Virus record (IMG/VR): IMGVR_UViG_3300032116_000127
Reading direction: 5' to 3' (one strand)
Length of the DNA: 64,000 nt
Source: an uncultured virus (IMG/VR IMGVR_UViG_3300032116_000127)
Taxonomy: Duplodnaviria; Heunggongvirae; Uroviricota; Caudoviricetes
A program made the position numbers and the translations under genes. Within the stretch, counting starts at the first letter, position 1, and each line of letters begins with the position of its first letter. Below are positions 1-64,000 of the stretch, piece by piece. Under the pieces are notes generated by a model. It worked only from the letters and a program-made list of their open reading frames with translations. It had not been told where the DNA came from and searched no databases.

Positions 1-182
1 TCTGCTCTTAATGTATCAATCATCGCTCTTGGAGACTCTAGATCAAATCTGTCTCTAATTGTCTGCCATGCAACGTTTTTACCTTTTGATAAAAGGTTAA
101 GCACTTGTTCTTTTTTTGATACTTGTTTCATAGTTCTTCTTGTAGAAGTTCTTGAACCAAATATTTTTCTTAGTATAGTCAT
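1..182 (-). CDS. Small HTH/winged-helix-like protein (3' end outside window)
   Basis: Hand translation MTILRKIFGS...KKEQVLNLLSKGKNVAWQTIRDRFDLESPRAMIDTLRA; AAGGAG RBS at ~193-198; not in ORF track. Confidence 0.6.
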   Translation of the reverse strand, partial: MTILRKIFGSRTSTRRTMKQVSKKEQVLNLLSKGKNVAWQTIRDRFDLESPRAMIDTLRA

Positions 183-236
183 TATATATTTACTCCTTGT
201 TATACTATATTGTTTATTTTTTACTTTACTCCCTAT

Positions 237-265
237 ATTATACTATAAAATTTCTTGGAAGTAAA
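237..265 (-). promoter_or_regulatory. sigma70-type early promoter TTTACT-N17-TATAAT
   Basis: Minus strand TTTACT tccaagaaattttatag TATAAT; identical copy at 10489-10517. Confidence 0.85.
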
Positions 266-273
266 ACCTTTAA

Positions 274-594
274 TTATACTATTAAAGATGGTTTTGTTAT
301 AATATCCAAACCAGAACCAAACATACGATTATATTCGTTAGTTAATGCTTCTGCTGGGATTGATGTTGTTAATATCATATCTGATCTAAAAGTAAATGTT
401 TTATCAGATGAAAAGGGTAGAAATGGTGCGAATGCTAATGACATTCTTTTTGGTTCTTTATTATCTTCACCTGTTAATATAACAGCAGGTGCTTCAACAA
501 TAAGTTCTTTTTCATCTTCTCTAATTACTTTACCAATCATATGTTGACCATTTAACAATACGATTATTTTAACTTGTGGATTATTTTGATTCAT
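274..594 (-). CDS. Sm-like (LSm/Hfq-fold) phage protein
   Basis: VKIIVLLNGQHMIGKV...LIVEAP...LAFAPFLPFS...Y..MFG pattern typical of Sm-like proteins of aquatic T4-like phages. Confidence 0.6.
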   Translation of the reverse strand: MNQNNPQVKIIVLLNGQHMIGKVIREDEKELIVEAPAVILTGEDNKEPKRMSLAFAPFLPFSSDKTFTFRSDMILTTSIPAEALTNEYNRMFGSGLDIITKPSLIV

Positions 595-601
595 AGACTA
601 T

Positions 602-630
602 ATTATACTATAAAAATACTTGTGTGTAAA
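602..630 (-). promoter_or_regulatory. Early promoter TTTACA-N17-TATAAT, probably leaderless
   Basis: -10 box lies 7 nt from the ATG at 594. Confidence 0.8.
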
Positions 631-633: not shown

Positions 634-816
634 TTAAAGAATCGGCTCTAATTCATCCTGGAGTAATTCTGATGGTGTTTTTGGAATAGATTTATCTGGG
701 GTTTTTGTTTCTTTTTCAAGATTGAAAGATTCTTCGCACTTGCAACCTTTAAGCAAACAACAAGGAATGCCCAAAGATTCAAGACGAAAAATACAATCTC
801 TTGAGAGATTGCTCAT
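634..816 (-). CDS. Small Cys-rich hypothetical protein
   Basis: 60 aa with C...CCxxxxCxC; packs tightly against the upstream ORF. Confidence 0.5.
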   Translation of the reverse strand: MSNLSRDCIFRLESLGIPCCLLKGCKCEESFNLEKETKTPDKSIPKTPSELLQDELEPIL

Positions 817-818
817 TT

Positions 819-983
819 TTATAGAAAACTTTTAAATGCTGTAAGCATACCTAAAACAAAAATTGAAATAACCATCATATAGACTGTTATTTGACAAATG
901 ATTGGAAGTTTATCCCAATTATTTTTAACAATTTTTTTAGTATTACTTACCCATTTGTTTTCACAAACGTTATAAGGAATCAT
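819..983 (-). CDS. Small membrane protein (54 aa)
   Basis: Hand translation MIPYNVCENKW...IICQITVYMMVISIFVLGMLTAFKSFL; one TM helix. Confidence 0.6.
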   Translation of the reverse strand: MIPYNVCENKWVSNTKKIVKNNWDKLPIICQITVYMMVISIFVLGMLTAFKSFL

Positions 984-1007
984 TTTATTTTATCTCTTAA
1001 TAAGTTT

Positions 1008-1039
1008 GGATTGGTAGAATAATTAAACTCTACCAATCC
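1008..1039 (-). other. Stem-loop downstream of hsp20
   Basis: GGATTGGTAGA / TCTACCAATCC 11-bp inverted repeat; no clear U-tract on the minus strand. Confidence 0.55.
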
Positions 1040-1055
1040 TCTTAAAACAGTATTA

Positions 1056-1508
1056 TTATTTTACTGCTATTTTTTTTGGTTTTTTGTGTTCTGGGATTAT
1101 TCTTTCTAGAACAACTTTTAACATACCATTTAGATACTGAGCATCTTTTACTTCGATGTTATCAGATAATGCAAACGATCTTTCGAATGCACGATTTGCT
1201 ATACCTTTGTATAGTTCAATATCTTTTGAATCTGATTTTGTTTCGTCAGATTTTGATTCACCTTTGATGATTAATTTGTCATCTTCTAATGTGATTTCAA
1301 TATCTGATTTTGCAAACCCAGCAACAGCCACTTCAATAACATATTTGTTATCATCAACTTTTTTTAAGTTGTATGGTGGATAGTTTGGTATCATTTTTCC
1401 AAATGACTCGTGTATATCGTGGAATCGTGCTAATTGATCATCGAATCCTACGAAAAACTTATCGAAGTCTTTGAATGCGTCATTAAAAAAAGTAGGAAGT
1501 CTAGTCAT
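1056..1508 (-). CDS. hsp20: Small heat-shock protein (IbpA-like alpha-crystallin)
   Basis: NYPPYN, IEVAVAGF, YKGIANRAFERSF, A.Y.NGML motifs; usual position near regA. Confidence 0.95.
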   Translation of the reverse strand: MTRLPTFFNDAFKDFDKFFVGFDDQLARFHDIHESFGKMIPNYPPYNLKKVDDNKYVIEVAVAGFAKSDIEITLEDDKLIIKGESKSDETKSDSKDIELYKGIANRAFERSFALSDNIEVKDAQYLNGMLKVVLERIIPEHKKPKKIAVK

Positions 1509-1711
1509 TACTTTCCTCCTTTGCTAACGTTCGCAACAAATGTTTCGCCTAAGCTTACGAATGATTTTGCTAATGTTTTGCTAAAAGTTTGAGTAGCATC
1601 AATAATTGAATTTACTGGTTCTGCTACTTTTGAGTCTTTGATGAATGTTTCAACAACAGACTTTTGTGCGTTTGACAGAGTGTCAATCGCTTGGTTTATG
1701 TGTGCTATCAT
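1508..1711 (-). CDS. Small amphipathic-helix protein, phasin-like
   Basis: 67 aa helical; strong AGGAGG RBS; TAATG stop/start overlap with hsp20; phasin similarity is by eye. Confidence 0.55.
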   Translation of the reverse strand: MIAHINQAIDTLSNAQKSVVETFIKDSKVAEPVNSIIDATQTFSKTLAKSFVSLGETFVANVSKGGK

Positions 1712-1810
1712 TATATCCTCCTATGAAAGCAAGGTTATTATTTACTACTGACTTTCCACTATTGGAACAATCAGGTGTGTTATATTCGATACAACGATCG
1801 AATATACACT
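1709..1810 (-). promoter_or_regulatory. ROSE-like RNA thermometer 5' UTR
   Basis: CCUUGCU-UUCAU-AGGAGG hairpin with bulged G sequesters the SD; two upstream hairpins at 1748-1774 and 1777-1809. Confidence 0.7.
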
Positions 1811-1813
1811 ATT

Positions 1814-1841
1814 ATATAGGTATTATTTTTAAAATTACTAG
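1814..1841 (-). promoter_or_regulatory. RpoH (sigma32)-like promoter CTAGTA-N15-CCTATAT
   Basis: Resembles the alphaproteobacterial CTTGAA-N15/16-CCTATAT consensus; directly upstream of the ROSE-like leader; overlaps a TATAAT. Confidence 0.5.
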
Positions 1842-1854
1842 TACCTATACAATA

Positions 1855-2010
1855 TTATTTATTCAAGTTATTGAATTTATTATCTTTTTTTTTATTCAAT
1901 AAGCTTAAATTTCGTGTCTTTGAGTCTATTTTCTTACCTAAAATAAGACCCATAAAGAATGCCATAACTATAAAAGCAACTATTAATAAAGTATGCCAAA
2001 TATAAAACAT
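1855..2010 (-). CDS. Small membrane protein (51 aa)
   Basis: Hand translation MFYIWHTLLIVAFIVMAFFMGLILGKK... Confidence 0.6.
   Translation of the reverse strand: MFYIWHTLLIVAFIVMAFFMGLILGKKIDSKTRNLSLLNKKKDNKFNNLNK
1864..1890 (-). promoter_or_regulatory. Putative IHF site
   Basis: AAAAAA-N8-ATTCAA-TAAC-TTG, one mismatch to A6-N8-WATCARNNNNTTR. Confidence 0.45.
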
Positions 2011-2011
2011 A

Positions 2012-2419
2012 TTAATCGCTTAGTCTATTAAAACGCACTTTTTTATTAAAAAGTTTTTTAAATTCTGGATTGATCAATACTTCTAGATTGCAATTTCTAA
2101 GTTCATCATCTGAGATATGATAATTCGCCCAATAATTTTGAAAACTGAATTGTGTGCCCAAACACGTCAGTTGATCCACATTAAAATTGTAATCTGTTGT
2201 GTGTATCACTTCCATTGCAAACTCACTCAGCCATTGCCCACACTCAGTGCCACGCATACGACCACCATCCCCATACAATCTTACCCATCCTGGAGAACAG
2301 TCTGAACGATGATAGACAAATCCATGACCATTGTTGTCAGCTGCACTCGCTGTGTTAGTGATAAAGTTTATAGAAAATATAGACAATAAAATTGCTATAC
2401 ATGTTATTATTTTTTTCAT
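2012..2419 (-). CDS. Secreted/periplasmic hypothetical protein
   Basis: Signal peptide MKKIITCIAILLSIFSINFITNTASA; start reassigned to ATG 2419; 4 Cys in mature part. Confidence 0.6.
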   Translation of the reverse strand: MKKIITCIAILLSIFSINFITNTASAADNNGHGFVYHRSDCSPGWVRLYGDGGRMRGTECGQWLSEFAMEVIHTTDYNFNVDQLTCLGTQFSFQNYWANYHISDDELRNCNLEVLINPEFKKLFNKKVRFNRLSD

Positions 2420-2420
2420 A

Positions 2421-2888
2421 TTATTTCGCTCTTTTTCCAATGTTATATTTAGCCACAAGTTCCCAACCTGCTTTGTCTTTATGTGCTAAAACTTTGATTT
2501 GACTTAAAGAAGCTTTGGATGAAATTTGAGCAAGATCTTTAATTTTTAATAATCCCCAATCAGCCAGTAATACAGCTATTGTATTTCTTCTTTCAATATC
2601 GTTTGTAGTAATATTAGATTCTTTTCCATCTAAAGAAAATAATTCTTTAAAATGAACGATAAAATATCTTCCTTGTTTATGTAATATATGACAAGATTGA
2701 TATAGTTTTTTATCAGTACGACTTGCGATACCGATACGTGTTAATGTTTCTCTAATTTTTAAAAAGTTATCTGGTTCGATCAGAAAAACTTCTAACATTT
2801 TGTCTGGACTCCATGCATATGGAACAGACTTATTTGAATCTTCTTTTACAGTCTCTAATGACTCTTGTTTATTTTCAATTTCACTCAT
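2421..2888 (-). CDS. regA: Translational repressor RegA
   Basis: PDNFLKIRETLTRIGIAS...LYQSCHILHKQGRYFIVHFKELF. Confidence 0.97.
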   Translation of the reverse strand: MSEIENKQESLETVKEDSNKSVPYAWSPDKMLEVFLIEPDNFLKIRETLTRIGIASRTDKKLYQSCHILHKQGRYFIVHFKELFSLDGKESNITTNDIERRNTIAVLLADWGLLKIKDLAQISSKASLSQIKVLAHKDKAGWELVAKYNIGKRAK

Positions 2889-3295
2889 TGCGTGCCACCT
2901 TTATAAAATTTTGATTTGATAATTTCAATCTGCTCTGGTTTTAAAAGGGATAATATCTCTTTTGCTTTTTGAGCAGAAACGTTATAATATTCCATAATAA
3001 AGGGTTCATTAGAATCTTTAGATTTTTTTGCCCACTTTTTATTCGAATATCTTTTCTTCTTAGCGACTATATTTAGGTAAAATAGAAATTGCCATTTCTT
3101 TGGAACATAGTGCAAAATGTTGATTTCATTAGCTATTTGGACTGTATCTGGGAACATAGAGAGAGATCTATTAATAATATAAGGCAAATAATCTTCTTCG
3201 AAAGTCTCTGTTTCGTGTAGGTTTTCTTTACTGTAATTGATAGCTGTGACGAACTTAAATGGATTCGTTTTATACTTTTTTACTTCCACTGACAT
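2885..3295 (-). CDS. gp62: Clamp loader small subunit
   Basis: YLPYIINRSLS.F.D...ANE.N; synteny 45-44-62-regA. Confidence 0.9.
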   Translation of the reverse strand: MSVEVKKYKTNPFKFVTAINYSKENLHETETFEEDYLPYIINRSLSMFPDTVQIANEINILHYVPKKWQFLFYLNIVAKKKRYSNKKWAKKSKDSNEPFIMEYYNVSAQKAKEILSLLKPEQIEIIKSKFYKGGTQ

Positions 3296-4233
3296 TTTTT
3301 CATTATCTCTGTCATTGCAGCAATCTTATTAATATTCGCATCTGCTACGAAAGCTGACTTGTATTGATAATCTGCTAGTATTAAAACCAACTCTGGTATT
3401 GAATTCTTTTCAATTGCTGGTTGGCACTTTTCAAATATCTCTGAGAATAAATTTGTAGTATCAATATCTGAATTAAGATCAACCCATTCACGCATTTTAT
3501 CCCACTCTTTATTCTTTAAGTATTTAAATAGTTTTGTATAAGACTCGTCTGATACACCTACAAGAACTCCTGTATCGATAGTACCACCTACAGAATATCT
3601 TTGTAGTTCGTTTAATGTTTTTCTAAAATCAGGAAAAAACTTTTGTATAAGAGTAGCGACTACTTTCTTATCGTATTTTATATTTTCTTTATCAAGAATC
3701 TCAATAACTCTATTGAAAAAATCAGCAGCAATAATTGCTCTTTCATCAGTTGGTATTTTAAAGTCAACTACAGAACATCTTGATTTAATCGGATCAATAA
3801 TTTTATTCTTAAAATTACAAGTAAGTATAAATCTACAATTAGAAGAGAACTCTTCTATAAATGCTCTTAAAGCTGGTTGCATTATATTCGGAGTCATATA
3901 ATCAGCTTCATCTAGGATAATAACTTTTTTTGCTGCAGTCAAAGATACAGTTGAAGCGAATCCTTTAATCTTTACTCTTAGAGTGTCAATCATACGACCC
4001 TCTTCTGAACCATTTATGATTATATACTCAGCACCAATTTCATCACATAATGCACGAGCGACAGTAGTCTTACCAACTCCTGCTGTACCATAAAATAGAA
4101 AATGTGGTATCTGTCCTCCTTTAATGAAAGACTTTAATGTAAGTTTAAAATTTTTAGGTAAGATACATTCGTTGATTGTACGAGGACGATACTTCTCAAC
4201 CCAAACAAATTGATTTTCAGATGTGTTTATCAT
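3280..4233 (-). CDS. gp44: Clamp loader AAA+ subunit
   Basis: WVEKYRP, Walker A GTAGVGKT, DEAD, SRC motif. Confidence 0.97.
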   Translation of the reverse strand: MINTSENQFVWVEKYRPRTINECILPKNFKLTLKSFIKGGQIPHFLFYGTAGVGKTTVARALCDEIGAEYIIINGSEEGRMIDTLRVKIKGFASTVSLTAAKKVIILDEADYMTPNIMQPALRAFIEEFSSNCRFILTCNFKNKIIDPIKSRCSVVDFKIPTDERAIIAADFFNRVIEILDKENIKYDKKVVATLIQKFFPDFRKTLNELQRYSVGGTIDTGVLVGVSDESYTKLFKYLKNKEWDKMREWVDLNSDIDTTNLFSEIFEKCQPAIEKNSIPELVLILADYQYKSAFVADANINKIAAMTEIMKKCQWK

Positions 4234-4250
4234 AATATAATATAGATGTA

Positions 4251-4273
4251 TAATGGGAGTATTCCTCCCATTA
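4251..4273 (-). other. Intergenic hairpin between gp45 and gp44
   Basis: TAATGGGAG-tattc-CTCCCATTA perfect 9-bp stem. Confidence 0.55.
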
Positions 4274-4275
4274 AA

Positions 4276-4977
4276 TTATTTGCCGATTACAGAATCAGAT
4301 TCGATTGCGATGTAATATACTAGCGAACCTTTAGTTGCTGAAAACTTAGATAGTTTTTTGCTATCAACTGTCACTACATAATCTGTAAGTACAATTTTTT
4401 GTAAATTTTCAACTTTCATATTTACTTTAAACTCTTTATCTGACGTACCAATATCTAGATTAAAAGCATTAGCTGTTGATTGTCCTGATTTTGCAGCTTG
4501 TTGTGCTTTTTTATCAGCAACTTCAACACTTACTTTACCATCTTTTGATACGATTGATATATCGCTTACTTTTAAAATTGCTGCTGACTTTGAAATCATA
4601 TCTAAATCTGCTGCTTTTAAATTAAAAGATACATCATTAGAAACAGGCAAACTTTCTTTTGATGGAACAAGTAGCATTTCACTTGCTGCTGAATAGAATT
4701 TAATTTTTTGATGACCTTTAGAAATCATACAAAAATTATCACCAAATGTTAAATCTGCATCTTCCATTAATGTATAAGCTGATAAAAAATCGTTTAATTC
4801 GTATATGCCAAAATTTCCAGAACCATTGATTGGCAAATTCTCTGAAATTTGTGCTACAGCCATTACACTTTTTGCTGGCGATATTGTTGATATTTTATTA
4901 CCATTCTTTAACATTAGATTGGCATTAATTCCTGCGAAGTTTTTCATAATCGCAATTGTTTCTTTACTTAGTTTCAT
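4276..4977 (-). CDS. gp45: Sliding clamp
   Basis: MKLSKETIAIMKNFAGIN, FGIYELNDFL, YYIAIE; AAGGAG RBS favours ATG 4977. Confidence 0.93.
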   Translation of the reverse strand: MKLSKETIAIMKNFAGINANLMLKNGNKISTISPAKSVMAVAQISENLPINGSGNFGIYELNDFLSAYTLMEDADLTFGDNFCMISKGHQKIKFYSAASEMLLVPSKESLPVSNDVSFNLKAADLDMISKSAAILKVSDISIVSKDGKVSVEVADKKAQQAAKSGQSTANAFNLDIGTSDKEFKVNMKVENLQKIVLTDYVVTVDSKKLSKFSATKGSLVYYIAIESDSVIGK

Positions 4978-4979
4978 TC

Positions 4980-5261
4980 TCACTCCTTTTCATTATTAAG
5001 TTTTTCTCCTTGATCGTGTATATATAAAGCAAGAAGAGCATAGTGTAAAATCTTTAAAAGATCTTTACGATTTTGTCCATCTTTATGCCCATACCTTTGA
5101 GCATATTTTAAAACATTGCCTAGTGTAAATCCTAGACCATGACCACAATCAACGATGAACTCTGTTGATTGAAATTTCTTTTTAGAATAATGACCTTTAT
5201 ATGTTTGGTCAATATATTGTTTAAATTCTTTTAATAGTTTATCTTCGTTAAATTTATACAT
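4980..5261 (-). CDS. DUF3310/SaV-like protein
   Basis: GHY...GFTLGNVLKYAQRYG.K...DLLK..HY. Confidence 0.7.
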   Translation of the reverse strand: MYKFNEDKLLKEFKQYIDQTYKGHYSKKKFQSTEFIVDCGHGLGFTLGNVLKYAQRYGHKDGQNRKDLLKILHYALLALYIHDQGEKLNNEKE

Positions 5262-5601
5262 TAGTTAATACATCTTTAAAAAATTGCTTATCTTCTTCTG
5301 TTTTTGATACTTCTGCTCTTATATTAGAATCTCCCACTGGAATAGTTTTAACTATATTATCAGGATTTAATCCTTTCGCAGGAAAAAAATAAACTCCTGG
5401 ACTTATTTTATTAGTTTTAAACAACCAATTTGGGTATCCAATTTTATCTGAATCTGCTTTACGATTTTTTAATAAATTCATATGAGCCGAATAACATTCT
5501 GCTGCTGAAATTACTCCAGTTTTCTCAAGATTTGGGAAAATTGTAATTACTGCATCAACCCATTTTCTTTGAGCTTTAGAAGCATTATCGTATGTTATCA
5601 T
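5254..5601 (-). CDS. Hypothetical protein, paralog A (homologous to the AAA+ N-domain)
   Basis: KIGYPNWLFKTNKISPGVYFFP shared with 5701-6066. Confidence 0.75.
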   Translation of the reverse strand: MITYDNASKAQRKWVDAVITIFPNLEKTGVISAAECYSAHMNLLKNRKADSDKIGYPNWLFKTNKISPGVYFFPAKGLNPDNIVKTIPVGDSNIRAEVSKTEEDKQFFKDVLTNV

Positions 5602-5607
5602 ATCAAT

Positions 5608-5636
5608 ATTATATTATAAATTTTATTGTAAGTAAA
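5608..5636 (-). promoter_or_regulatory. Early promoter TTTACT-N17-TATAAT, probably leaderless
   Basis: -10 box lies 6 nt from ATG 5601. Confidence 0.8.
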
Positions 5637-5700
5637 GTGGGAGAAAAAAGGATAATTTCTTATATGGGACTCCCACTTTACAATTTAATAAAAACTCCCA

Positions 5701-6066
5701 TTAAGAAACTCTTATATCAATACCAAAAGCTTTTAAATCATTTAAAAATGATTTATCTTCTTCTGATACTCTACTAGTAATAACAATTGGTTCAGCTTTA
5801 CCATTTAAAGATTGAGATGCTTTTTGTACTGTCACTCCCTCTGCTGGAAATAAGTATATTCCTCTTTTAATTTTATTAAGTTTAAACAACCAATTTGGAT
5901 ATCCAATTTTTGGAGTACCTGAAACTCTTTGTTTTTCTAATTGTTTAAAAGAGTCATAACATTGTGTTGCTGTAATATACCCTTTACTTACACAATCGGG
6001 TAGAATTTTAGAAACGTTTTCTACCCAACGTTTTTGTGATTTAGTAAGTGAATTCCAAGTTAGCAT
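5701..6066 (-). CDS. Hypothetical protein, paralog B (homologous to the AAA+ N-domain)
   Basis: KIGYPNWLFKLNKIKRGIYLFP; TAATG coupling to the ATPase gene. Confidence 0.75.
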   Translation of the reverse strand: MLTWNSLTKSQKRWVENVSKILPDCVSKGYITATQCYDSFKQLEKQRVSGTPKIGYPNWLFKLNKIKRGIYLFPAEGVTVQKASQSLNGKAEPIVITSRVSEEDKSFLNDLKAFGIDIRVS

Positions 6067-7235
6067 TAAGCACTCACTGTTTGTTGTTGATTAACTACAG
6101 CACTCGCAACTTCAGACTCTGATGGTTTCGGAGCCGAAGTTTCTCTGTTATTTGATACTTTGTCAAACAAATCAATAAAAGCAAGTCTTGTTGCTTCATC
6201 GAATCTATTTGTACATAACTGTATAGATTTATCAATATCTTTAAATACTGAATATGCTCTTACAATATGAACCAATCTTCTTGTAGTAATTGTTTCATCA
6301 ACACCACCTGATTCATTTGTTTTTCTAATCACATCAGCCCACTTAACTAGAGTCTGAGCGAATTTATCATTCTTACATTTATAAGAGTCCATCAGATTTT
6401 TAACAATCTTTAATTCAATCGATGGTGTTGGATATTCTTGTTGGAATGTCACAGCAAATCTCTCTAGAAATGCTTCATTCAAAACATTCGTACCAATATA
6501 TCTTCCATCTTCTGAACCTTTGCCTTTGGTATTCGCTGTGGCGAATATATTAAAACCATTTTTTGGAACGATAATCTCGTTCTTTAATTTAAAGTAGAAT
6601 GGCTTACCCTCTAGAATTGGTTGTAAACATAATAGAGTATTAGCACCACCAGCATCGATCTCATCAAGCAATAATGGGATTCCTAATCTCATTGCTATAA
6701 CAACTGGTCCCTCTACGATTTGTATATTACCATCGACAAGTGTTTTAGTACCGATTAATTGATCTTCGTCTGTTAAGCTGTTTAAATTAACTCTAATTAA
6801 AGAAATTTTATGTTTTGCACAAATTTGTTCAATCGAAGTAGATTTACCATTACCAGTCGGTCCAGTCACAAATGTTGGATAAAATTGTCTAGAAGTTATG
6901 ATAGTTTCTAAGTCTTTATAATTTCCGAATGGGACATAATTACTATCTCTAATTGGAACTAAAGACTTAACATCTAAATTAGAAGATTCAGATTTTACAG
7001 TATCAATTTTAACAACATTATTTGTCACTGAAGAAGAAACACTTGAAAGAGGAATAATATAAGATCCTCTCCCAGTTTTTTGGGCTTTCACCCAGTTATA
7101 AACTTCTGATTTGTTGTCAAACTTAGTAGTTTTAAAAACTTTAACAATCTGTTTCCAATTAAATTTATTCTCATCATTGGAATAAGATTTATGTAGAGAT
7201 TCTACAAACTTTTTTATATTCGCATTATTCATCAT
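6066..7235 (-). CDS. MoxR/CbbQ-family AAA+ ATPase (often labelled CobS-like)
   Basis: GPTGNGKS, LLLDEID, ATANTKGKGS.DGRY.GTNVLNEAFLERF, ITTRRLVHI; start moved to ATG 7235 because 7265 is only 2 nt from the -10 box. Confidence 0.9.
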   Translation of the reverse strand: MMNNANIKKFVESLHKSYSNDENKFNWKQIVKVFKTTKFDNKSEVYNWVKAQKTGRGSYIIPLSSVSSSVTNNVVKIDTVKSESSNLDVKSLVPIRDSNYVPFGNYKDLETIITSRQFYPTFVTGPTGNGKSTSIEQICAKHKISLIRVNLNSLTDEDQLIGTKTLVDGNIQIVEGPVVIAMRLGIPLLLDEIDAGGANTLLCLQPILEGKPFYFKLKNEIIVPKNGFNIFATANTKGKGSEDGRYIGTNVLNEAFLERFAVTFQQEYPTPSIELKIVKNLMDSYKCKNDKFAQTLVKWADVIRKTNESGGVDETITTRRLVHIVRAYSVFKDIDKSIQLCTNRFDEATRLAFIDLFDKVSNNRETSAPKPSESEVASAVVNQQQTVSA

Positions 7236-7267
7236 ATATTTGCCTTTTTTAGTTGGTTTATACATAT

Positions 7268-7337
7268 ATTATAGCATAATTCGTTGAAAAAGTATATACT
7301 TCCAGAAAATAAAAAAGATATATATTTCAATGGTTTA
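7268..7337 (-). promoter_or_regulatory. Promoter TATACT-N17-TATAAT (extended -10) with upstream IHF-like site
   Basis: -10 7268-7273, -35 7291-7296; AAAAAA-N8-TTTCAA-TGGT-TTA at 7311-7337. Confidence 0.65.
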
Positions 7338-7343
7338 GTCATA

Positions 7344-35124: not shown

Positions 35125-35125
35125 T

Positions 35126-56174: not shown

Positions 56175-56213
56175 GCTTCTTTATATAGTTGTTAAGAAAG
56201 TAGAAACTAAATT

Positions 56214-57629
56214 CTACATTTCTACGATAATTTTAATATCTTCGATTTGATCGATAGCACGATTGATTGGTCTACGATTTTCAACATAGATCACATCACC
56301 ACTGTCTGGCTGTATTTCTGGATTTGATAAAGCACCAGAAGTAAATGTCACAGCAGTTGGTGTAGTTCCATCAGCAGCATACATCGTCACAGTTTCAGCT
56401 GGTTGAAATGCTACACCAGTTGGATTATCTGTGCTTGTTTGTATGTATCTAATAGTTGTGTTCGCTGTATCAATGCTAGTAATTCTTCCGACTGCACCTG
56501 AAGTACCACCTACGATTTTTCTATCATTTAATAATGTACCAGCTAATGCTGAATAAGCGATTGATTTAGATGCTGTTCTTGTTGAAAGAGTAGCAACAGT
56601 TGTAGAACCAAAATTATAAGGATCACGTATTAATGTGATACGACGATAATCATTGTCAACTGGGAAGTCGCCAGATCCATCATTGTATTCTAATCTTACG
56701 TTCATCATTACATAGAATCCACCTAATTCTTTTATAGCATCAGAACCATGTCCACCTTTTGGTGAAATAATTGCAGTTGCACCAGCATTCGCACCACCAC
56801 CACCTGTGAATGCTACATTGGCATAAGTGTATCCTGAACCACCTGAAGTAATATCTACTCTTATAATTGTGTTTGTACCAGCATCACGCACAGCAGTTGC
56901 TGTAGCACCTGTACCATCACCTGTGATTGTCACAGTTGGAGTACTTGAATATCCTGATCCTACGTTTGTGATAACAATATTATCAATACGTCCGTCAACA
57001 GCAGCTTGTTCAACTAGATATTGATTGTAATATGCATCAGTCACTCCAGGATTTGTTATAAGACGTTTAACTGGAATAAAATCGGTAGAAACGAATTTTA
57101 AAACGTTAGCAGGAGAAACTGTAAACATATATTTCCAAGCATAACCATCAGCTGTAGAAAATATAGCAGTTCCTGTTCCTGTTGGTTTATTTACAGAAGC
57201 AACAACAACACCATTTGAATTTCTGTTATCAATAACTTTATAAACGTTATATTCATCAGTTATCACGAAAAAGTTTGAATCAAATAAAGTTGCAGGAGTT
57301 GTAGCACCACCAGAGTTTATGTTCACTCCAGCAGTCACACCATTATAGTCATGACGATAAATGTCATAATACTTTCCTGATGTCCAATCTCTTCTTGGGA
57401 TTGCTAATATTACATCAGATGCTTGTACTCGCTTTAAAGCGATCATGTCATCCCAGTAATATAATTCGTCGCCGACTGTATCTTTTGGTGTATCTGGTAA
57501 GTTATCATCAGCCCAACTTTGTGGACGACCTATACCAAGATATATTGATGTTGGGGATGCTTCATCGAATCCCTCTAAAAATGATTGCGCATTATGAATG
57601 CGGAATTTGTTTGAAATAATTGCTGCCAT
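56214..57629 (-). CDS. gp8: Baseplate wedge protein
   Basis: GRPQ.W, YNVYK..DN, DGY.WKYMF, P.GGHG....ELG, SG..IYVENR.PI.R..DQ.EDIK. Confidence 0.9.
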   Translation of the reverse strand: MAAIISNKFRIHNAQSFLEGFDEASPTSIYLGIGRPQSWADDNLPDTPKDTVGDELYYWDDMIALKRVQASDVILAIPRRDWTSGKYYDIYRHDYNGVTAGVNINSGGATTPATLFDSNFFVITDEYNVYKVIDNRNSNGVVVASVNKPTGTGTAIFSTADGYAWKYMFTVSPANVLKFVSTDFIPVKRLITNPGVTDAYYNQYLVEQAAVDGRIDNIVITNVGSGYSSTPTVTITGDGTGATATAVRDAGTNTIIRVDITSGGSGYTYANVAFTGGGGANAGATAIISPKGGHGSDAIKELGGFYVMMNVRLEYNDGSGDFPVDNDYRRITLIRDPYNFGSTTVATLSTRTASKSIAYSALAGTLLNDRKIVGGTSGAVGRITSIDTANTTIRYIQTSTDNPTGVAFQPAETVTMYAADGTTPTAVTFTSGALSNPEIQPDSGDVIYVENRRPINRAIDQIEDIKIIVEM

Positions 57630-57648
57630 GGTTATTTTTCCTTAATGT

Positions 57649-60285
57649 TTATGTGTATAAGTCGAATAATAAATTGTTATTATCCCAATTGTAAATAGAC
57701 GCATCCATTTCTACACTGTCTGCATCCATAGTAAATGTATCATCAAACGTGAATCGAGCATCGTCTGTCGAGAATCTTAAAGCTGATGCTGGAAGCCTGA
57801 TAATACCAATCTCTGATTCAATTGCAAAATTGACTTTCCTATAAGGGTTATTTAGTATTTCTCCTACAGTTAAGTTGGTAAAATCTTTAATTTGAGTATT
57901 ACCATAATTCCAATAATTAAAGTTTGGATTTGGGTAAGTATTCGCTAATCCATATGTACCTGTTGTATATGCAGGAGTTCCATCACTATTTGCGAATTTA
58001 GTACCTGAAATACTTGGTTTATGAGTAAATTTATATCTTTCAAGATCAACTAAATTTATACCATATCTTCTTGCACTTCCATCGAAAGCAGGAGTTGATT
58101 TATTAAGTAAAGTGACTGGATTTCTATCTAGTTTATTCGCTTTTGTTAATAATTTAGCAAGATTAATTTCAAGCTGTTTCGCTTGTTCGAATCCTATAAC
58201 TTCTGCTCTTAAATCCAACAAATGTATTTCTTGTGGTGTAAGGTTTGGAAAGTTTAATGTTGGTAAGAATTCTGAAGCTAATACACTTATATTTAGTGTT
58301 GAAACTACGAAGTCTGTTATGCCCAAAATTATCTGATTTTTACTTAAAGTAGCATACATTTCTCCTGCTGTACGATAGTTTCCTACAGCTTTCATCTTTA
58401 AGTCTATTAGTTGACGAATATTATAGTTTAATATTTCTCTTCGAAGTTTAGTTTCGGTTTTTATAGTATTTTTAATTTTAACTTCTCCAAATAATGCCAG
58501 ACCAATTGGATGTAATAATTTTTTTACAGCATCACGATATAGGTTAATACTCTGTCCTACTTTTACAACATATGAAAAATCTTGGTAGTAAAGAGAGTCT
58601 TGAATACGTTTAGAACTTTCAGATATTTGTCCGTCTGAAGAACTAAATCCACCAACTTGAGAAGTGACTGCATTTACTCTTACTCGAATATTTGGATTTG
58701 AAATAGAACAAATAGTTGCAGTTGTATTAGAAGTTAAACCTCTAATCCTCATATTGTGTTGAAATTGTCCTGATTCTTCTCTTACAAATATATCAGCATC
58801 TTCATCTAATATATAACCACTCTCATCTTCTTTTAAAAATCCATTAAAAGATGTTCCTTCTTTTAATTTAATTAAATGTGTATCATTATCTATTTTTTCT
58901 AATATTGCTTGAGCAACTTGTTGTTTCTCATTTAAAAATTTATCACCATTTTCTAATATTAAATTATCATCAGTATTTCTTTCTAAACGAATTGATTGTG
59001 GCAAACTTGTAATAGTTTCACCTGTTATAAAACTTCCTGATGGGTTTTTAATAACTACAGAAAGAGGTACAAAAAAATAAGGAGGATTTATATAGTCAAA
59101 TCCACTTTCAGAAGTCACAATACTTGTTATTCTACCAATACTGTTTGATGCTGCTAATATTTTACCATTTGCTCTTCCAGATCCAGTTGGTAAAGAACAA
59201 ATAGGAAGTTTGCTGTAAAAAGCACCACCTGAAAGTAAAGTTGCTTTCTTAATTGCACCTGAATTTGAAGATTCAATATCAATATCTCCTAATTCTTCTG
59301 AAAGTAATTTTCCTGAATCGTCTTCTAATAAAAAAGAATCTCTATCTACTTCTGAAACAAATCCTGTTGCAGTTAATGATGGTGATAACTCTGGTCCTCC
59401 AGTTCCTGTATTATTAAAACTAATTACATCCCCTATTTGATATCCAACACCACCTGCTGCTACAATTAATTCAGAAACAGATCCAGGAGAAACTGCTCCT
59501 ACTTCTGAACGAGCAAGGACTCCTGTTGGTGAAGAAAAATAAACTATGTCACCAACATTACTGTAAGTTCCACCTTGATTATTAATGATTGAAAATTGTT
59601 GAATGATTGGTAATACAGTACAAACTATTGGAGTATTATCAATAAAAGATGTTCCAGTAATAGTATATGTTTGAATATCATTTGTTTGTTTAAATGTTCC
59701 TATAATACTATCTTTACTTAATGTTAATTCAGCTATGTCTTGTGTCAAATATCGAAAAAGAATTACGTTCTCTACTCGAGCTGTTGCTTTTTCTACATCG
59801 CCATTTGGAAATATTCTTGTTTGAGTAATTAATTGTCCTAGTAAATTACGAGCATCACCAGTGGTAGAAACAACACGAATTAATTGTCTTTCGCTCCATT
59901 TACCATCTGATACACGAAGCATATCAACTTTAGGAAAATATACTTCGGCATCTTCATTAAACAATATACGAAAAAGAAATTTATATGAAGCTTCTGTTCC
60001 TTTTGATAGGTATAAATCTTTAATGTGTTTAGCTAAGAATCTTTTATCTGATATAACTTCTCTTGGAATACTGTGTAATATTTCTTTTGAAAAGAATTCA
60101 ATAAACATATTGACTGTGTTGTCAATATCTCTTATATCTTCTAAATGTTGTTGTGGGTAAAAATTTTCAAGCCACTCATAGTATGCTTTTAAAAAATCAA
60201 TAAACTTTTGATTATCATCCCTTACAAATTCAGGAACTTGTTTATTAACTACTATTGATGCTGTTGCTTTTACTGAAGCTGGCAT
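57649..60285 (-). CDS. gp7: Baseplate wedge initiator
   Basis: Q.PEFV, F..FLKAYYEWLE, Y.SKGT..S...LFRILF, IQDS.YYQDFSYV.K, HP.G...FGE. Confidence 0.8.
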   Translation of the reverse strand: MPASVKATASIVVNKQVPEFVRDDNQKFIDFLKAYYEWLENFYPQQHLEDIRDIDNTVNMFIEFFSKEILHSIPREVISDKRFLAKHIKDLYLSKGTEASYKFLFRILFNEDAEVYFPKVDMLRVSDGKWSERQLIRVVSTTGDARNLLGQLITQTRIFPNGDVEKATARVENVILFRYLTQDIAELTLSKDSIIGTFKQTNDIQTYTITGTSFIDNTPIVCTVLPIIQQFSIINNQGGTYSNVGDIVYFSSPTGVLARSEVGAVSPGSVSELIVAAGGVGYQIGDVISFNNTGTGGPELSPSLTATGFVSEVDRDSFLLEDDSGKLLSEELGDIDIESSNSGAIKKATLLSGGAFYSKLPICSLPTGSGRANGKILAASNSIGRITSIVTSESGFDYINPPYFFVPLSVVIKNPSGSFITGETITSLPQSIRLERNTDDNLILENGDKFLNEKQQVAQAILEKIDNDTHLIKLKEGTSFNGFLKEDESGYILDEDADIFVREESGQFQHNMRIRGLTSNTTATICSISNPNIRVRVNAVTSQVGGFSSSDGQISESSKRIQDSLYYQDFSYVVKVGQSINLYRDAVKKLLHPIGLALFGEVKIKNTIKTETKLRREILNYNIRQLIDLKMKAVGNYRTAGEMYATLSKNQIILGITDFVVSTLNISVLASEFLPTLNFPNLTPQEIHLLDLRAEVIGFEQAKQLEINLAKLLTKANKLDRNPVTLLNKSTPAFDGSARRYGINLVDLERYKFTHKPSISGTKFANSDGTPAYTTGTYGLANTYPNPNFNYWNYGNTQIKDFTNLTVGEILNNPYRKVNFAIESEIGIIRLPASALRFSTDDARFTFDDTFTMDADSVEMDASIYNWDNNNLLFDLYT

Positions 60286-60290
60286 AGTTT

Positions 60291-62138
60291 TTATCTACTA
60301 GTTGAGAATATAAAATCTTTTCCTGATACACTTTCACCAGAAGCAATTTTATCAGATATAACATTTACTTCTATATCTTGTTCTCTTATAAATGCTAATT
60401 GATTTCTAACAGATATTACATCATAAGAAGCAGGTTCTACTCTAAAAGTTATTTTACCATTAGTATCACCTTGTGTTATGTTGATACTATCAATTGATAT
60501 TTTACCAGTTGAATAATTTACTGTACCGATATATGATGGTGTATAAATTTTAACGTTTGCAGCAGTAAGATAAAACAATCTTAAATTACCGATTGCATTG
60601 TCTTCAATATAATACGTATCTGTACTTCCTGCTATTTTAAATCCTGATGACGACACAGAAATAGAAGCATTTTGTGTTGAAGTTGGTCTATAAATTGGAT
60701 TATTTAATGAAAATGTATATTTTGTATTTGTATTAAATTGTGGTGTTAAAAGATACTTTAATTGAATTTTAGTAATGTTTGATACAATGCTACTTTCACT
60801 AGTATCAATTAAAATTGATAATGCTGATTCACGAAATACTGCATCAAATTTATTTAAATTATTTGTGTTATAGTTTTTAATTGCATCAATAACGATGCTT
60901 TTTATAGTATCAGCACTACGAGTTGTTGATTTAGGATTATAATACACATTTGAATTTACTGATATGTATAATATGTCAGGATCTACTATTTCAGGAATAA
61001 TACTCACTAAGCTTTTTCCTTTTACAATATCTTTAATTATAATTTGTTTTGTACTTTGTGTAAGAGTATCTCCTGTTTTTGGTTTAATGCAAATATATGC
61101 TTTTCCATAAATTGGTGGATCATTTTCTTCCCCACCCCAAACAGAAATAGCATCTACATTATTATAAAATTTAGGAATAAGTGTTTTATAATCTTCTGCA
61201 GTCACAGCACGATTTTGAGCTGTAAAATTTTTAGGAGCATTATATTTTATACTGTCTATCGACTCAGGTACAGAACCACCTGCTGCAATAGATTTAGTCA
61301 CAATTGATACGTTAGCTGTATTTGTGAATGCATTTCCTGTGTATGTGAAAGTAGATGTACCATTTGGTTCTGATTCACTGCAAACAAAATAATCTATAAT
61401 AATGTTTGCACCATTTGCTGGAGCAAATCCCAATAAGCCATCACCAAAAGAAATAACATAATTACCATCATCATTTTCTTTTAAAAAATAAACACGTGAT
61501 GATGGAGTTAATGTAGCGAAATTATCAGCAAGAGTATATACTGTATTTGCTGCTGATCCTGCTACTTCTTGAACGTTCACTTTAATTGTTGAAGTATCTA
61601 CTTTAAGATTTGGAACTGTATAAGAACCATTTGTGACCATTGAATATGTTTTTTGTAATAATCTTCCTTCAATTATAGGAATATTTAAAAATGAATATGT
61701 ATTTGTGACTGAACGAGAAACAGTAATTGCACTATCAGTTGAGAAATTAAAATTACTTCCACTGAAATTTGAACTAAATGAAGTTCCTGCTGGTATAGTA
61801 AGTGTAGTTGGATTTCCTGACACGTTAGAAATTATTATATCAACAAGTGCTCTTGAAGCAATACTTGATGATGGAGTATATCCTAATGACTTAGCAAGAC
61901 TTACAACTGATGAACGTTTAACAGCACTATCTAAAAACATTTCATTAACACTCAAATTATAATATAAAGCATTATAGTGTGTGTTATAGGCAAGTACATC
62001 TAATAGAATCGAAAGACCAGATCCTTCAAAATTGTAATCGCTAAATGCATTTTGTGCTTTTAAATAAGTTTTTATATTCTTTTTTATTTCATCAAAATCT
62101 AATTCAGTGACTTTAATGTTTCTACTTGTTTCTGCCAT
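60291..62138 (-). CDS. gp6: Baseplate wedge protein
   Basis: LDFD.IK, DY.FEGSGLS.L.DVLAYNTHY, FGDG, AP.....QNRAVT..DY, WGGE.N.PP.YGK. Confidence 0.95.
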   Translation of the reverse strand: MAETSRNIKVTELDFDEIKKNIKTYLKAQNAFSDYNFEGSGLSILLDVLAYNTHYNALYYNLSVNEMFLDSAVKRSSVVSLAKSLGYTPSSSIASRALVDIIISNVSGNPTTLTIPAGTSFSSNFSGSNFNFSTDSAITVSRSVTNTYSFLNIPIIEGRLLQKTYSMVTNGSYTVPNLKVDTSTIKVNVQEVAGSAANTVYTLADNFATLTPSSRVYFLKENDDGNYVISFGDGLLGFAPANGANIIIDYFVCSESEPNGTSTFTYTGNAFTNTANVSIVTKSIAAGGSVPESIDSIKYNAPKNFTAQNRAVTAEDYKTLIPKFYNNVDAISVWGGEENDPPIYGKAYICIKPKTGDTLTQSTKQIIIKDIVKGKSLVSIIPEIVDPDILYISVNSNVYYNPKSTTRSADTIKSIVIDAIKNYNTNNLNKFDAVFRESALSILIDTSESSIVSNITKIQLKYLLTPQFNTNTKYTFSLNNPIYRPTSTQNASISVSSSGFKIAGSTDTYYIEDNAIGNLRLFYLTAANVKIYTPSYIGTVNYSTGKISIDSINITQGDTNGKITFRVEPASYDVISVRNQLAFIREQDIEVNVISDKIASGESVSGKDFIFSTSR

Positions 62139-62530
62139 TATCGTGTTCTTTCAAGTGTTAAAGTTAATTCTATTGGTGTAGCTGTATTAATAATTTTAAA
62201 TACAATACGAATATCTACGTAATTCTCATCAGGTCGAACATTAACAAAAACATCAACTAGTTGTACTCTTGGTTCGTAATTTCTTATTACATCTACTATA
62301 CTTCTTTTAATAATTGAAACAGACATTTCAGTGACTGGTTCAAATAATAAACCACGAACTTGACTGCCAATTTCACTATGGAATGGTCTTTCAAAATTTT
62401 TAGTAAGTATTAAATTTCGGACACTTTGTTTAATCGCTTGTTCATCATATTTTATAGCTACATCCTTATTAACTGGATGTGCTGTAAAATTAAGATCTAA
62501 ATCTGTAAATGTTCTTGTATTTGTAGGCAT
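62138..62530 (-). CDS. gp25: Baseplate wedge/sheath initiator
   Basis: DLDL.F..HP, AIKQSVRNL.LT...ERPF, YEPRV. Confidence 0.95.
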   Translation of the reverse strand: MPTNTRTFTDLDLNFTAHPVNKDVAIKYDEQAIKQSVRNLILTKNFERPFHSEIGSQVRGLLFEPVTEMSVSIIKRSIVDVIRNYEPRVQLVDVFVNVRPDENYVDIRIVFKIINTATPIELTLTLERTR

Positions 62531-62534
62531 ATTA

Positions 62535-62542
62535 TATTTAGT
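62535..62542 (-). promoter_or_regulatory. Late promoter ACTAAATA
   Basis: Only 4 nt from ATG 62530. Confidence 0.55.
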
Positions 62543-62844
62543 TATCCTATATTAACTTTTGGTGAACAAAGTGGTCCGACAGAATCGCCACAGGCTATTG
62601 GGTCTCCTAATCTAACAGCCATTTTTCCTTCTATAAAAACCTTTTTTGATCCTAATACTACTCTTCTAGATGCTCCACTGTGTACTATTAAACCACAAAT
62701 ATGTGAAATATAAATTGTATGATTTACTAAAGGAACTGCTAATCCATTAATAGTTGTTTTCAAACTAAATGGTCCAGCAGGCAATCTTGCTGGCCAACAG
62801 CCATGTCCTGATGATAAAGTAGTTGTTAGTGCTGCTAATGGCAT
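62542..62844 (-). CDS. PAAR spike-tip protein (gp5.4-like)
   Basis: GHGCWP, H.C...H, GS..V...G....R.GD.I.CG. Confidence 0.9.
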   Translation of the reverse strand: MPLAALTTTLSSGHGCWPARLPAGPFSLKTTINGLAVPLVNHTIYISHICGLIVHSGASRRVVLGSKKVFIEGKMAVRLGDPIACGDSVGPLCSPKVNIG

Positions 62845-62846
62845 AT

Positions 62847-64000
62847 TTATTTAACCTCTGATATTAAAGAGAAACCATCCGATACTTTTAAATGGTCTCT
62901 CATAGTAAATGTTTCGAATCTATTTCCTGCATATTTCCATGAACAATGCAACCAAACTGATTTTTTACCTGCATACGATAATACTATACGATCAAATCCA
63001 TAAGGTAAAGATAAAACTAAATCTATTGCTGCTTGATAATGTTGAGCACGATTCCAACTTGAGAATATAATATCAACAGCTTCACCTGTGTAATGTTGAG
63101 ATGTTTCAGGAGATCCTGCTTGAATTTGATTATTTCTATATCCATTTACAATTAAAACGTTTTTGAATAAATCTTTCATTGGTTCAATAAGATATGTTGC
63201 CATTCCTTTTAAATTACAAACTATTTGTTTTGGTTCTACTCCCATTTGTGATATAATAGGAATACCACCATTTCGATTTAATGCTCCTAATTGAACACGA
63301 GCAGATAATTGTAAGCTAGGTTCGTAATTAGTTAAACCATAAATGTATTCACATTTTTGTTCTGCTGTTGCTATTTCTGATTTAACTGTTGGTACAGTTT
63401 TAACAGAAACATTACCTAAATCTAAATTTTTACGAATATATAAACCACGTTGTATTTGTCGTTCACGATGAGTTTGGGCATCTCCTTCATCAGGAACTTC
63501 ATAAACAAAATACTCTCTTGCTGAACGTGAATTAACTTGTAATTCAGGTATAACTGGCATTTGTGTATCAATAATTTCATTTGTTGTAATTGCTAATCCT
63601 GATGGAGTAAATCCATTGGCTATTTCTACTTTACTACCATCTAATTCTAAAACTTGTGCTGCACCTAATGTAGCCATTCCTTTTGACTCCATACGTATTT
63701 GTCCAGCAACTAATCTAAATTCACCACCAACATTTAAATTCATATCACCAGCAACTGTGACTTTGCAATCATTATTGATTACAACTTCTCCTGGACCATC
63801 TATTCTTATTTTTGCTCCAGCTTTAAGCACTGCATTTAATTCACCATAAACTGTTAAATTTTTTGTACCACCAACTAATTCATATGTATTTCTTTCACTC
63901 AATTGATAACGATCTCCTACTACACGATCAGTTAATGTACCATTATGATCCCATTCCATCCAACTTCCACGTTTATGGAATATATTAATTCTTTCAGCAT
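62847..64000 (-). CDS. gp5: Central spike gp5 (5' end outside window) with C-terminal M15 peptidase
   Basis: Frame open to window edge (AERINIFHKRGSWME); V.G beta-helix repeats; GYR...SQH..GEAVD...WLH; adjacent to PAAR and gp25. Confidence 0.8.
   Translation of the reverse strand, partial: AERINIFHKRGSWMEWDHNGTLTDRVVGDRYQLSERNTYELVGGTKNLTVYGELNAVLKAGAKIRIDGPGEVVINNDCKVTVAGDMNLNVGGEFRLVAGQIRMESKGMATLGAAQVLELDGSKVEIANGFTPSGLAITTNEIIDTQMPVIPELQVNSRSAREYFVYEVPDEGDAQTHRERQIQRGLYIRKNLDLGNVSVKTVPTVKSEIATAEQKCEYIYGLTNYEPSLQLSARVQLGALNRNGGIPIISQMGVEPKQIVCNLKGMATYLIEPMKDLFKNVLIVNGYRNNQIQAGSPETSQHYTGEAVDIIFSSWNRAQHYQAAIDLVLSLPYGFDRIVLSYAGKKSVWLHCSWKYAGNRFETFTMRDHLKVSDGFSLISEVK

Follow-up and report, generated by a model that had tools for sequence, protein, structure and literature searches.

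Why should the pentanucleotide GTWAC (W, A or T) be almost missing from a long stretch of phage DNA, and survive there only with a T before it and an A after it? The question is raised by a stretch of 64,000 bases, referred to here as the window, from an uncultured virus of the Caudoviricetes (IMG/VR record IMGVR_UViG_3300032116_000127), in which the distribution of this word reads as the imprint of a restriction pressure on the phage and, possibly, of a partial chemical shield on its DNA. Judged by its gene content, the window represents that half of a lytic, T4-like, uncultured phage in which the structural and replication genes lie, and PHROG profiles recognize T4-like myophage genes for the clamp loader, a gp46/47-like nuclease, the major head protein, portal, sheath, large terminase, and baseplate proteins. 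Among cultured phages, no portal reaches 60% identity to that of the window, and the closest are those of the marine cyanomyophages and the Methylophilales phage Melnitz, and 8 kb of the window, compared by megablast with a cultured-phage collection, returned no match. The GC content is 31.6%, and all the long open reading frames (ORFs) lie on one strand (minus). Expected counts were obtained from 300 synonymous-codon shuffles of 60 minus-strand ORFs, which make up 95% of the window, and from 100 dinucleotide-preserving shuffles of the window itself.

The window contains 15 copies of GTWAC, all of them as TGTWACA, against 109.1 ± 9.1 in the dinucleotide shuffles and 114.6 ± 6.3 in the codon shuffles, and GTAAC/GTTAC is the most depleted 5-mer under both nulls. 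In the codon shuffles, TGTWACA is expected 20.7 ± 4.1 times (15 seen), while GTWAC in all other contexts is expected 93.9 ± 6.7 times, with a minimum of 78 in any shuffle, and was not seen at all. The share of T...A copies in the shuffles is 0.18, which puts the chance of 15 out of 15 near 7e-12. The eight one-mismatch neighbors of GTWAC are all at expectation, and GTSAC (S, C or G) is enriched 2.5-fold (102 versus 41.0 ± 5.8). The purge is achieved through silent recoding, chiefly of the Val-Thr codon pair from GTW-ACN to GTS-ACN, with 83 of the 96 Val-Thr pairs using GTG or GTC, codons that account for 218 of the 1345 Val codons; the remaining 13 pairs are all T-GTW-ACA, and GTW-ACT does not occur, though ACT is common.

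A preliminary description of the window had reported that its first 10 kb lack GTWAC, that every copy found (located by its leading T) has T before and A after, that GTSAC is common, with Val-Thr pairs favoring GTG and GTC, and, less surely, that GTTAAC and GTATAC are missing. The full count bears this out, with GTTAAC and GTATAC both at zero (15.3 ± 4.3 and 9.9 ± 2.5 expected, respectively), and neither a total close to expectation nor a copy in any other context occurs. The tract empty of GTWAC is, in fact, the first 13 kb (1-13016), which carries replication genes; about four TGTWACA would be expected there at the window average, and their absence may be due to chance.

GTAAC and GTTAC are each depleted on both the coding and the template strand, and VCCGT/ACGGB, VCCWGG/CCWGGB, and VGCGG/CCGCB (V, not T; B, not A) are equally empty on the two. 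Given that the genes all lie on one strand, a depletion equal on both strands points to a process acting on double-stranded DNA, and selection at this level would have removed every GTWAC that lacks a T on both strands. The agent would be a host endonuclease with GTWAC as its palindromic target, in all likelihood a conventional Type II restriction enzyme, and a purge driven by restriction, taken on its own, can be held with considerable confidence. We know of no endonuclease of this specificity. MaeIII cuts GTNAC and Tsp45I cuts GTSAC, which are likewise pentanucleotide palindromes of the form GT-N-AC, although neither specificity fits a window in which GTSAC is enriched.

The relatives of the window differ in their treatment of this word. 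Among 80 IMG/VR loci found through the portal, the ten close ones (portal 92-100% identical) contain GTWAC as TGTWACA only, or not at all. At 99.97% identity over positions 1-56,909 (56,909 bases), G001 (69.5 kb) is the record closest to the window; it extends 12.6 kb past base 1 and has 15 of 15 copies as TGTWACA. A complete relative with terminal repeats, G002 (144,834 bases, 92% identical to the window), has no GTWAC, against approximately 207 expected in 145 kb, and G005, of the close clade, has none in 40 kb. In a second clade (portal 69% identical, GC 37%), TGTWACA accounts for five of the seven GTWAC of G003 and for all four of those of G006. By contrast, G004 (portal 85% identical) is not depleted, with 34 copies flanked by any base. 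In the portal tree, the undepleted G004 lineage falls between the two avoiding clades, which implies at least two origins of the avoidance, or one loss, and at the window positions that correspond to the GTWAC of G004, the replacements are varied and affect all five positions of the motif, which argues against an artefact. As far as these records go, the avoidance varies among related phages, as expected of a host-specific pressure.

The tolerance of the T...A context is not private to GTWAC, given that CCWGG and at least seven other words are spared by a 5' T. Of the 32 CCWGG in the window, 31 are TCCWGGA, with the same flanks as TGTWACA, and the total is unchanged, that is, the flanks were recoded and the core was kept. 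In the codon shuffles, the copies with T on both sides, on one side, and on neither are expected 6.6, 16.3, and 9.0 times in the window, where they number 31, one, and none; in G002, the expectations are 13.5, 29.9, and 17.4, against 61, one, and none. The TCCWGGA sites are in the frame CCW-GGA in 29 of 31 cases, and all 30 Pro-Gly pairs are encoded by CCW-GGA, 29 of them after T, though the commonest Gly codon is GGT. These pairs must be CCW-GGN because a CCS-GG pair would form CCGG, another of the purged words.

The reach of this rule was assessed by a scan of all 4- and 5-mers, in which a core was counted as spared when one 5' flank had an observed/expected ratio (O/E) of at least 0.5 and the other three had ratios of at most 0.15. 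The spared cores in the window number 15 behind T, one behind A, one behind C, and none behind G; in G002, 17 behind T, one behind C, and none behind A or G; in G003 and G009, 44 and 11, respectively, all behind T. These cores overlap, and are not independent, but reduce in the window to approximately nine groups (CCWGG, CCGT, CGCT, CGGT/CGGC, GCGG, CCTCC, CCTTC, CCTCA, and GTWAC), although GTWAC itself, which needs T on both sides, lies below the cut-off of the scan. Depleted cores with C or G as their first base have O/E values of 0.31-0.63 behind T, versus 0.01-0.15 behind A, C, or G, whereas in those that begin with A or T, a 5' T is not favored (O/E 0.03-0.32).

As T appears to spare only the cores that start with C or G, the protective unit would be a T-C or T-G step lying immediately against the site. 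The recurrence of the same T...A escape in the unrelated CCWGG and in other words suggests that the cause lies in the phage DNA itself, and it is unlikely that several unrelated nucleases would have one blind spot. The TGTWACA exception would then reflect a T before C or G (a T-S step) directly 5' of the site on each strand, protecting GTWAC, CCWGG, and the other purged words that start with C or G; that protection of this kind is a property of the DNA is a reasonably probable proposition, if a less secure one than the purge itself.

Other words are purged with a different relation to their flanks. In the window, CCGG is absent (approximately 16 expected) and GGCC occurs once. The word ACSGT (ACCGT/ACGGT) is absent from the window, G002, and G003 (approximately 45, 86, and 75 expected, respectively), with no rescue by T flanks, and in G009, only the class without a T flank is purged (4 versus 119.7). 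In G003, the rule for GATC is reversed, with T..A copies at 0 versus 19.2, copies with one T at 5 versus 103, and copies without T in excess, at 167 versus 116; GAWTC behaves similarly, and ACGT is at 0 versus 148. A nuclease that is specific for TGATC, or one that depends on modification, could underlie this GATC pattern.

If a thymine is marked, the relatives suggest by what means. In G002, a gene adjoining that of a gp41-like helicase encodes a 432-amino-acid (aa) dioxygenase of the TET/JBP family (Pfam PF12851, 82.6 bits, cut-off 34.9, E 2.4e-23), with an intact HxD...H triad, H280-x-D282 and H333 being invariant in eight homologues. The same Tet gene lies in G001 8.7 kb beyond base 1 of the window (97.9% aa identity), and is also found in G003, G005, and G007-G011. 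The next gene encodes a protein of 334 aa, which is 96% identical between G001 and G002 and for which Pfam yields nothing better than Glyco_trans_1_2 at a non-significant E of 0.12; searches of the PDB sequences with this protein and with the Tet protein gave chance-level matches only. A language-model look-up pointed, for the 334-aa protein, to clusters of the T4 glucosyltransferase, and an AlphaFold model built from 39 homologues (predicted local distance difference test, pLDDT, 94.5) was assigned the GT-B fold by Foldseek, with the T4 beta-glucosyltransferase (BGT) structures 1j39, 1c3j, 1bgt, and 1bgu giving the top full-length template-modeling (TM) scores (0.65-0.69, E 4e-8 to 4e-7). The modeled fold makes this neighbor a candidate group-transfer enzyme acting on 5-hydroxymethyluracil (5hmU). 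Profiles of the DNA methylase domains PF01555, PF00145, and PF02086 (N6/N4, C5, and D12) found none in the complete G002, nor in G001, G003, G004, or G006, and the lack of a recognizable C5-cytosine methylase (PF00145 profile) in these records fits a TET/JBP enzyme with no supply of 5-methylcytosine as substrate.

The slot that follows the Tet gene is a site of exchange, occupied by the BGT-like glycosyltransferase in G001 and G002, and in G005 and G009 by a glutamine amidotransferase, an amino acid:DNA transferase (ADDT, E ~1e-22), and a P-loop kinase of the Ploopntkinase3 family, accompanied by an amidoligase and a low-molecular-weight phosphatase in G005 and by a GNAT acetyltransferase in G009. 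Its occupants in G003 are an FkbM-type methyltransferase and a protein resembling inositol-phosphate synthase, with the P-loop kinase nearby. Some genes further downstream than the Tet/glycosyltransferase pair, G002 has a 201-aa ORF that is not found in G001 (Table 1). The type of cassette was considered as a determinant of TGTWACA retention, and was rejected, since G001 and G002 have both the Tet and the glycosyltransferase gene in common, and G002 has no TGTWACA.

Together with published enzymology, the genes of G001 suggest that the mark may be a thymine modification made after replication, in which the TET/JBP dioxygenase would convert T to 5hmU at T-S steps and the adjoining T4 BGT-like enzyme would glycosylate the 5hmU to a residue resembling base J. 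The phage would, in this case, delete the sites that lie beyond the cover of a partial shield and tolerate those that are covered. The whole chain, from the purge and its GTWAC endonuclease to the T-S shield and the glycosylated thymine, is on balance the more probable account, by a modest measure. Its extension to a widespread group of aquatic T4-like phages, which would combine a base-J-like shield at T-C and T-G flanks with the full deletion of the sites that cannot be covered, is tentative, and falls a little short of an even chance.

The TGTWACA copies that remain in the window, and the words that take their place in the relatives, are listed in Table 1. At all 15 sites, G002 carries a substitution that destroys the core, and in ten of these, W is replaced by S. 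Four of the sites are covered by the closest relatives, and at three of them, L002-L004 and G002 share TGTSACA, while the fourth is occupied in them by other words that are not sites; at one site, L006 and L007 carry the other W. Given that the closest relatives share TGTSACA at three of the four sites, the window copies look, by parsimony, like recent regains, made only in the tolerated context, and sister lineages may still be changing in how they balance the shield against the purge.

Table 1. Positions of the spared GTWAC and CCWGG sites in the window, with the counterparts of the former in related records, and of other features mentioned in the text. The GTWAC core starts one base after the leading T of each TGTWACA (13018, 23417 ... 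53902).
Feature	Position	Detail	Counterpart in relatives
TGTAACA	13017..13023	coding frame GTG-TTA-CAA	G002: GTAAT
TGTAACA	23416..23422	portal gene	L002, L003, L004, L011, G002: TGTGACA; L006, L007: TGTTACA
TGTAACA	27244..27250		L002, L003, L004, L006, G002: TGTGACA
TGTAACA	29066..29072		relatives: GTTAA or GTAAG
TGTAACA	29693..29699		L002, L003, L004, G002: TGTCACA
TGTAACA	33418..33424		G002: GTAGC
TGTAACA	37230..37236		G002: GTGAC
TGTTACA	40514..40520		G002: GTCAC
TGTAACA	41958..41964	coding frame GTG-TTA-CAA	G002: GCAAC
TGTTACA	43658..43664		G002: GTGAT
TGTAACA	44300..44306		G002: GTCAC
TGTAACA	47950..47956		G002: GTGAC
TGTTACA	51735..51741		G002: AGTCACA
TGTAACA	52725..52731		G002: AGTGACA
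TGTTACA	53901..53907		G002: AGTCACA
TCCWGGA (31 sites, spanning 656..63795)	leading T at 656, 2288, 5395, 9726, 10791, 17042, 18420, 25507, 26812, 27769, 28793, 31247, 37800, 42086, 42110, 42422, 43685, 46711, 48079, 50754, 52149, 53835, 55038, 55365, 55734, 55812, 55983, 56091, 57045, 59482, 63789		
TCCTGGC	51087..51093	sole CCWGG of the window with a T flank on one side	
Tail-fibre-like ORF	31879-35124	1081 aa	
Tail-fibre-like ORF	35769-38360	863 aa	
Spacer at the HNH insertion point of G002	4233-4276	42 bases	G002: HNH endonuclease ORF, L082:11769-12278
201-aa ORF of G002	L083:8367-8972		
Ribosomal protein S21 gene of G002	L085:18074-18421		

A number of observations weigh against the account of a thymine shield. 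The mark itself is read from a footprint in the sequence and from gene content, rather than from chemistry, and neither the Tet gene nor that of the glycosyltransferase is part of the window, both being known from the near-identical record G001. While the footprint agrees, indirectly, with a mark confined to T before C or G, neither CCGG nor GGCC gains any rescue from T flanks in the codon-shuffle counts, with T..A copies of CCGG at 0 versus 2.2 in the window, 0 versus 5.2 in G002, and 0 versus 4.5 in G003, and of GGCC at 1 versus 2.8, 0 versus 3.7, and 0 versus 4.8, respectively, and in G009, a T before ACSGT, which forms a T-A step, does spare. Every CCTGG includes a T-G step of its own, yet unflanked CCWGG is purged, so a mark placed within it would have to leave the enzyme unhindered. 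In G002, sparing at TG is evident (TGCGG 23 versus 37.8; VGCGG 5 versus 67.2), yet TGTWACA is at 0 versus 33.4, and both G002, with its Tet (98% aa identity) and glycosyltransferase (96%), and G005, with its Tet, have no GTWAC at all. The shield alone does not, then, decide the retention of TGTWACA, for which a host enzyme that is not blocked by the mark, or a finer rule of context, are the obvious candidates. The codon-shuffle null ignores codon-pair bias, and the genomes compared are few and mutually related.

The control phages are divided on the same point. No core is spared by T in the Pelagibacter phage HTVC008M and only one in S-IOM18, neither of which has a Tet homologue, and in Melnitz, which has only a weak Tet match (29%), the spared cores are two behind T, three behind A, and six behind G. 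In C48C1, which has a Tet gene, CCGG is spared behind T, with the class without T at 24 versus 112 and the other classes at expectation. On the opposing side, Cr30 and DLP6 have Tet homologues and show no sparing by T flanks, with few purged words, and HTVC008M spares eight cores of the GATC/GANTC type by a 5' G, with no Tet, which indicates that flank-specific sparing can arise otherwise. In this phage (L111-L118), GTWAC is not depleted, and a preceding G is the only 5' flank that exempts the GATC/GANTC-type words from the purge, a rule that may reflect a different context-specific modification or the specificity of an enzyme.

The host is also part of the difficulty. The S21 protein encoded by G002 (Table 1) found, in a scan of bacterial genomes, only short matches of 48-62% identity (approximately 45 residues), mostly in Verrucomicrobiota metagenome-assembled genomes (MAGs), and matches of this kind are too weak to name a host; the loci concerned were left out of the further analysis. 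Neither a GTWAC nuclease nor a description of this pattern of purge and flank sparing was found in the literature, subscription journals being outside the search. Methylation of adenine (m6A) at GTWAC is reported in two marine Poseidoniia/Euryarchaeota MAGs, and the motif is stated to have matched no methylase motif in REBASE in 2021 (Hiraoka et al. 2022, PMC8919816). Enzymes that read exactly GTWAC thus exist in aquatic microbes, although these archaea, with a GC content of approximately 49-50%, are unlikely hosts of a phage of 32% GC, and what is described there is methylation only, not a nuclease (PMC8919816).

The strongest competitor dispenses with any modification of the phage DNA, and holds that the host enzyme itself reads the asymmetric GTWACB (VGTWAC on the other strand), as a Type IIS, Type III, or BREX-like system might, or that each half of a symmetric dimeric enzyme rejects a 5' T, so that TGTWACA is no substrate. 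This describes the GTWAC data of the window perfectly, methylases with "not-X" positions, such as GADTC and BAAAA, are reported (PMC8919816), a variant enzyme that accepts any flank would explain G002, and the sparing by another letter in HTVC008M, with no Tet, is in its favor. It has, however, to account for the same T...A rule in CCWGG and for the sparing of CCGT, CGCT, CGGT, CGGC, GCGG, CCTCC, and CCTTC by a 5' T, where the other three bases hardly ever spare, which would demand the same blind spot of several unrelated enzymes; in addition, the rule depends on whether the word begins with C or G, which is a dinucleotide property of DNA. This explanation is accordingly considered unlikely. 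The preliminary description had proposed just such a site, GTWACB, which is correct as a formal description of the absent words, but probably wrong as the cause, given the other words, at least seven in number, that are spared by T; its broader suggestion of an undescribed DNA-targeting defense has held up better, in that the purge is symmetric, silent, exact to GTWAC, and lineage-specific.

A shield of a different chemistry would place the mark on the adenine of the flanking T:A pair, that is, on an A after C or G, through a Mom-type modification as in phage Mu or an adenine methylase with a short motif. Footprints cannot tell which base of the pair carries the mark, and the S-A context resembles the Mom consensus. 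Even so, the complete G002 has no N6/N4 or D12 methylase domain, and no Mom-like match was obtained among its 129 ORFs scanned with Pfam, whereas a thymine pathway is present in these phages, as Tet with a glycosyltransferase or with a kinase and ADDT, which leaves the adenine mark very improbable.

The purge might also be self-imposed, if the phage had a GTWAC nuclease of its own that degrades, for example, the host DNA. G002 encodes HNH, GIY-YIG (SegE-like), and PD-(D/E)XK nucleases, and the avoidance is common to two phage clades, but these nucleases are of the homing and recombination types, and none is known to follow the avoidance. At least six other classical restriction palindromes are purged as well, as the pressure of host restriction-modification predicts, and self-avoidance leaves the T-flank rule unexplained, so that this origin is more doubtful still. 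Least credible of all is a pattern produced without selection by DNA cleavage, through mutation bias, selection on RNA or translation, or an error of sequencing or assembly where a motif is modified, for which nothing speaks specifically beyond the neglect of codon-pair effects by the codon null, and which is opposed by the strand symmetry in spite of one-strand genes, the normal counts of the one-mismatch neighbors, the varied substitutions relative to G004 at every position of the motif, and the recurrence of the pattern in independent contigs.

Two features of these genomes stand apart from the question of the purged words. The two tail-fibre-like ORFs of the window (Table 1) have internal repeats in common, with 70-80% nucleotide identity, and match the same PHROG families, phrog_30390 and phrog_2647. 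In G002, an HNH endonuclease ORF lies between the homologues of gp45 (sliding clamp) and gp44 (clamp loader), and at this insertion point, the window has just a short spacer.

The account of a glycosylated thymine shield has its nearest formal parallel in the base J pathway of the kinetoplastids, in which the hydroxylases JBP1 and JBP2 act with a glucosyltransferase and the role is the control of transcription. The proposed route from T to 5hmU and to glucosyl-hmU at a subset of the thymines is the same, although the kingdom and the role are different, and the transferase found here resembles that of phage T4 and is not known to resemble the kinetoplastid enzyme. Among phages, TET/JBP-family thymine dioxygenases are reported to oxidize T after replication, with a preference for NTC or NTG and a coverage of 20-35%, 5mYOX97 preferring NTC and 5mYOX176 preferring NTG (O'Toole et al. 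2026, PMC13229309). Likened by description, those enzymes and the present one have in common the TET/JBP fold, the lack of a partner C5-methylase, a dinucleotide-level specificity for T followed by C or G, putative in the present one, and a frequent association with glycosyltransferases, although no ParB-like neighbor was found in the records considered here. The authors of that study take partial modification to fit regulation better than defense (PMC13229309), whereas the present footprints argue for an anti-restriction role, and would, if correctly read, bear directly on this question.

The thymidine hypermodifications of phages M6, ViI, and phiW-14 are described as lying at TG and TC, and a flanking T, as in tGCCGGC, has been suggested to add resistance (Flodman et al. 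2019, PMC6449724). The systems would be alike in the partial, post-replication modification of T, in the preference for TS, and in the blocking of Type II enzymes. They differ in that M6, ViI, and phiW-14 produce 5-hydroxymethyldeoxyuridine (5hmdU) before replication, through a dUMP hydroxymethylase, whereas here the TET/JBP enzyme would act on the polymer, and in that a BGT-like glycosyltransferase would, in the lineage of the window, replace the kinase and transferase of those systems, which are, moreover, documented by digestion data (PMC6449724), where the present one is read from an evolutionary footprint. Metavirome contigs that carry TET_JBP beside genes for a 5-hmdU kinase, a transferase, an amidoligase, and a glutaminotransferase (Lee et al. 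2021, PMC8989533) match the cassette of G005 and G009.

The elimination of sites in non-temperate double-stranded DNA phages is also established (Rusinov et al. 2018, PMC6286503), and the resemblance extends to the near or full loss of a short palindrome, the silent recoding, and the effect on several words at once, although flank-dependent sparing (T...A) does not figure in the abstract of that survey. If the present account is true, the shield protects restriction sites from the flank, outside the recognized bases, and the context in which a partial DNA modification is placed in uncultured phages can be learned from nothing more than their sequences. The one footprint would, in this case, make two defenses readable, revealing both the context rule of the modification and a restriction activity not yet described, with the predicted specificity GTWAC, which was without a REBASE match in 2021 (PMC8919816). 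Neither restriction-site avoidance nor thymidine hypermodification is new by itself; here the two appear to be coupled, leaving a sharp footprint in which none of approximately 94 unflanked sites remains, all 15 survivors are flanked by T, and all 30 Pro-Gly pairs are held to a single codon pair.

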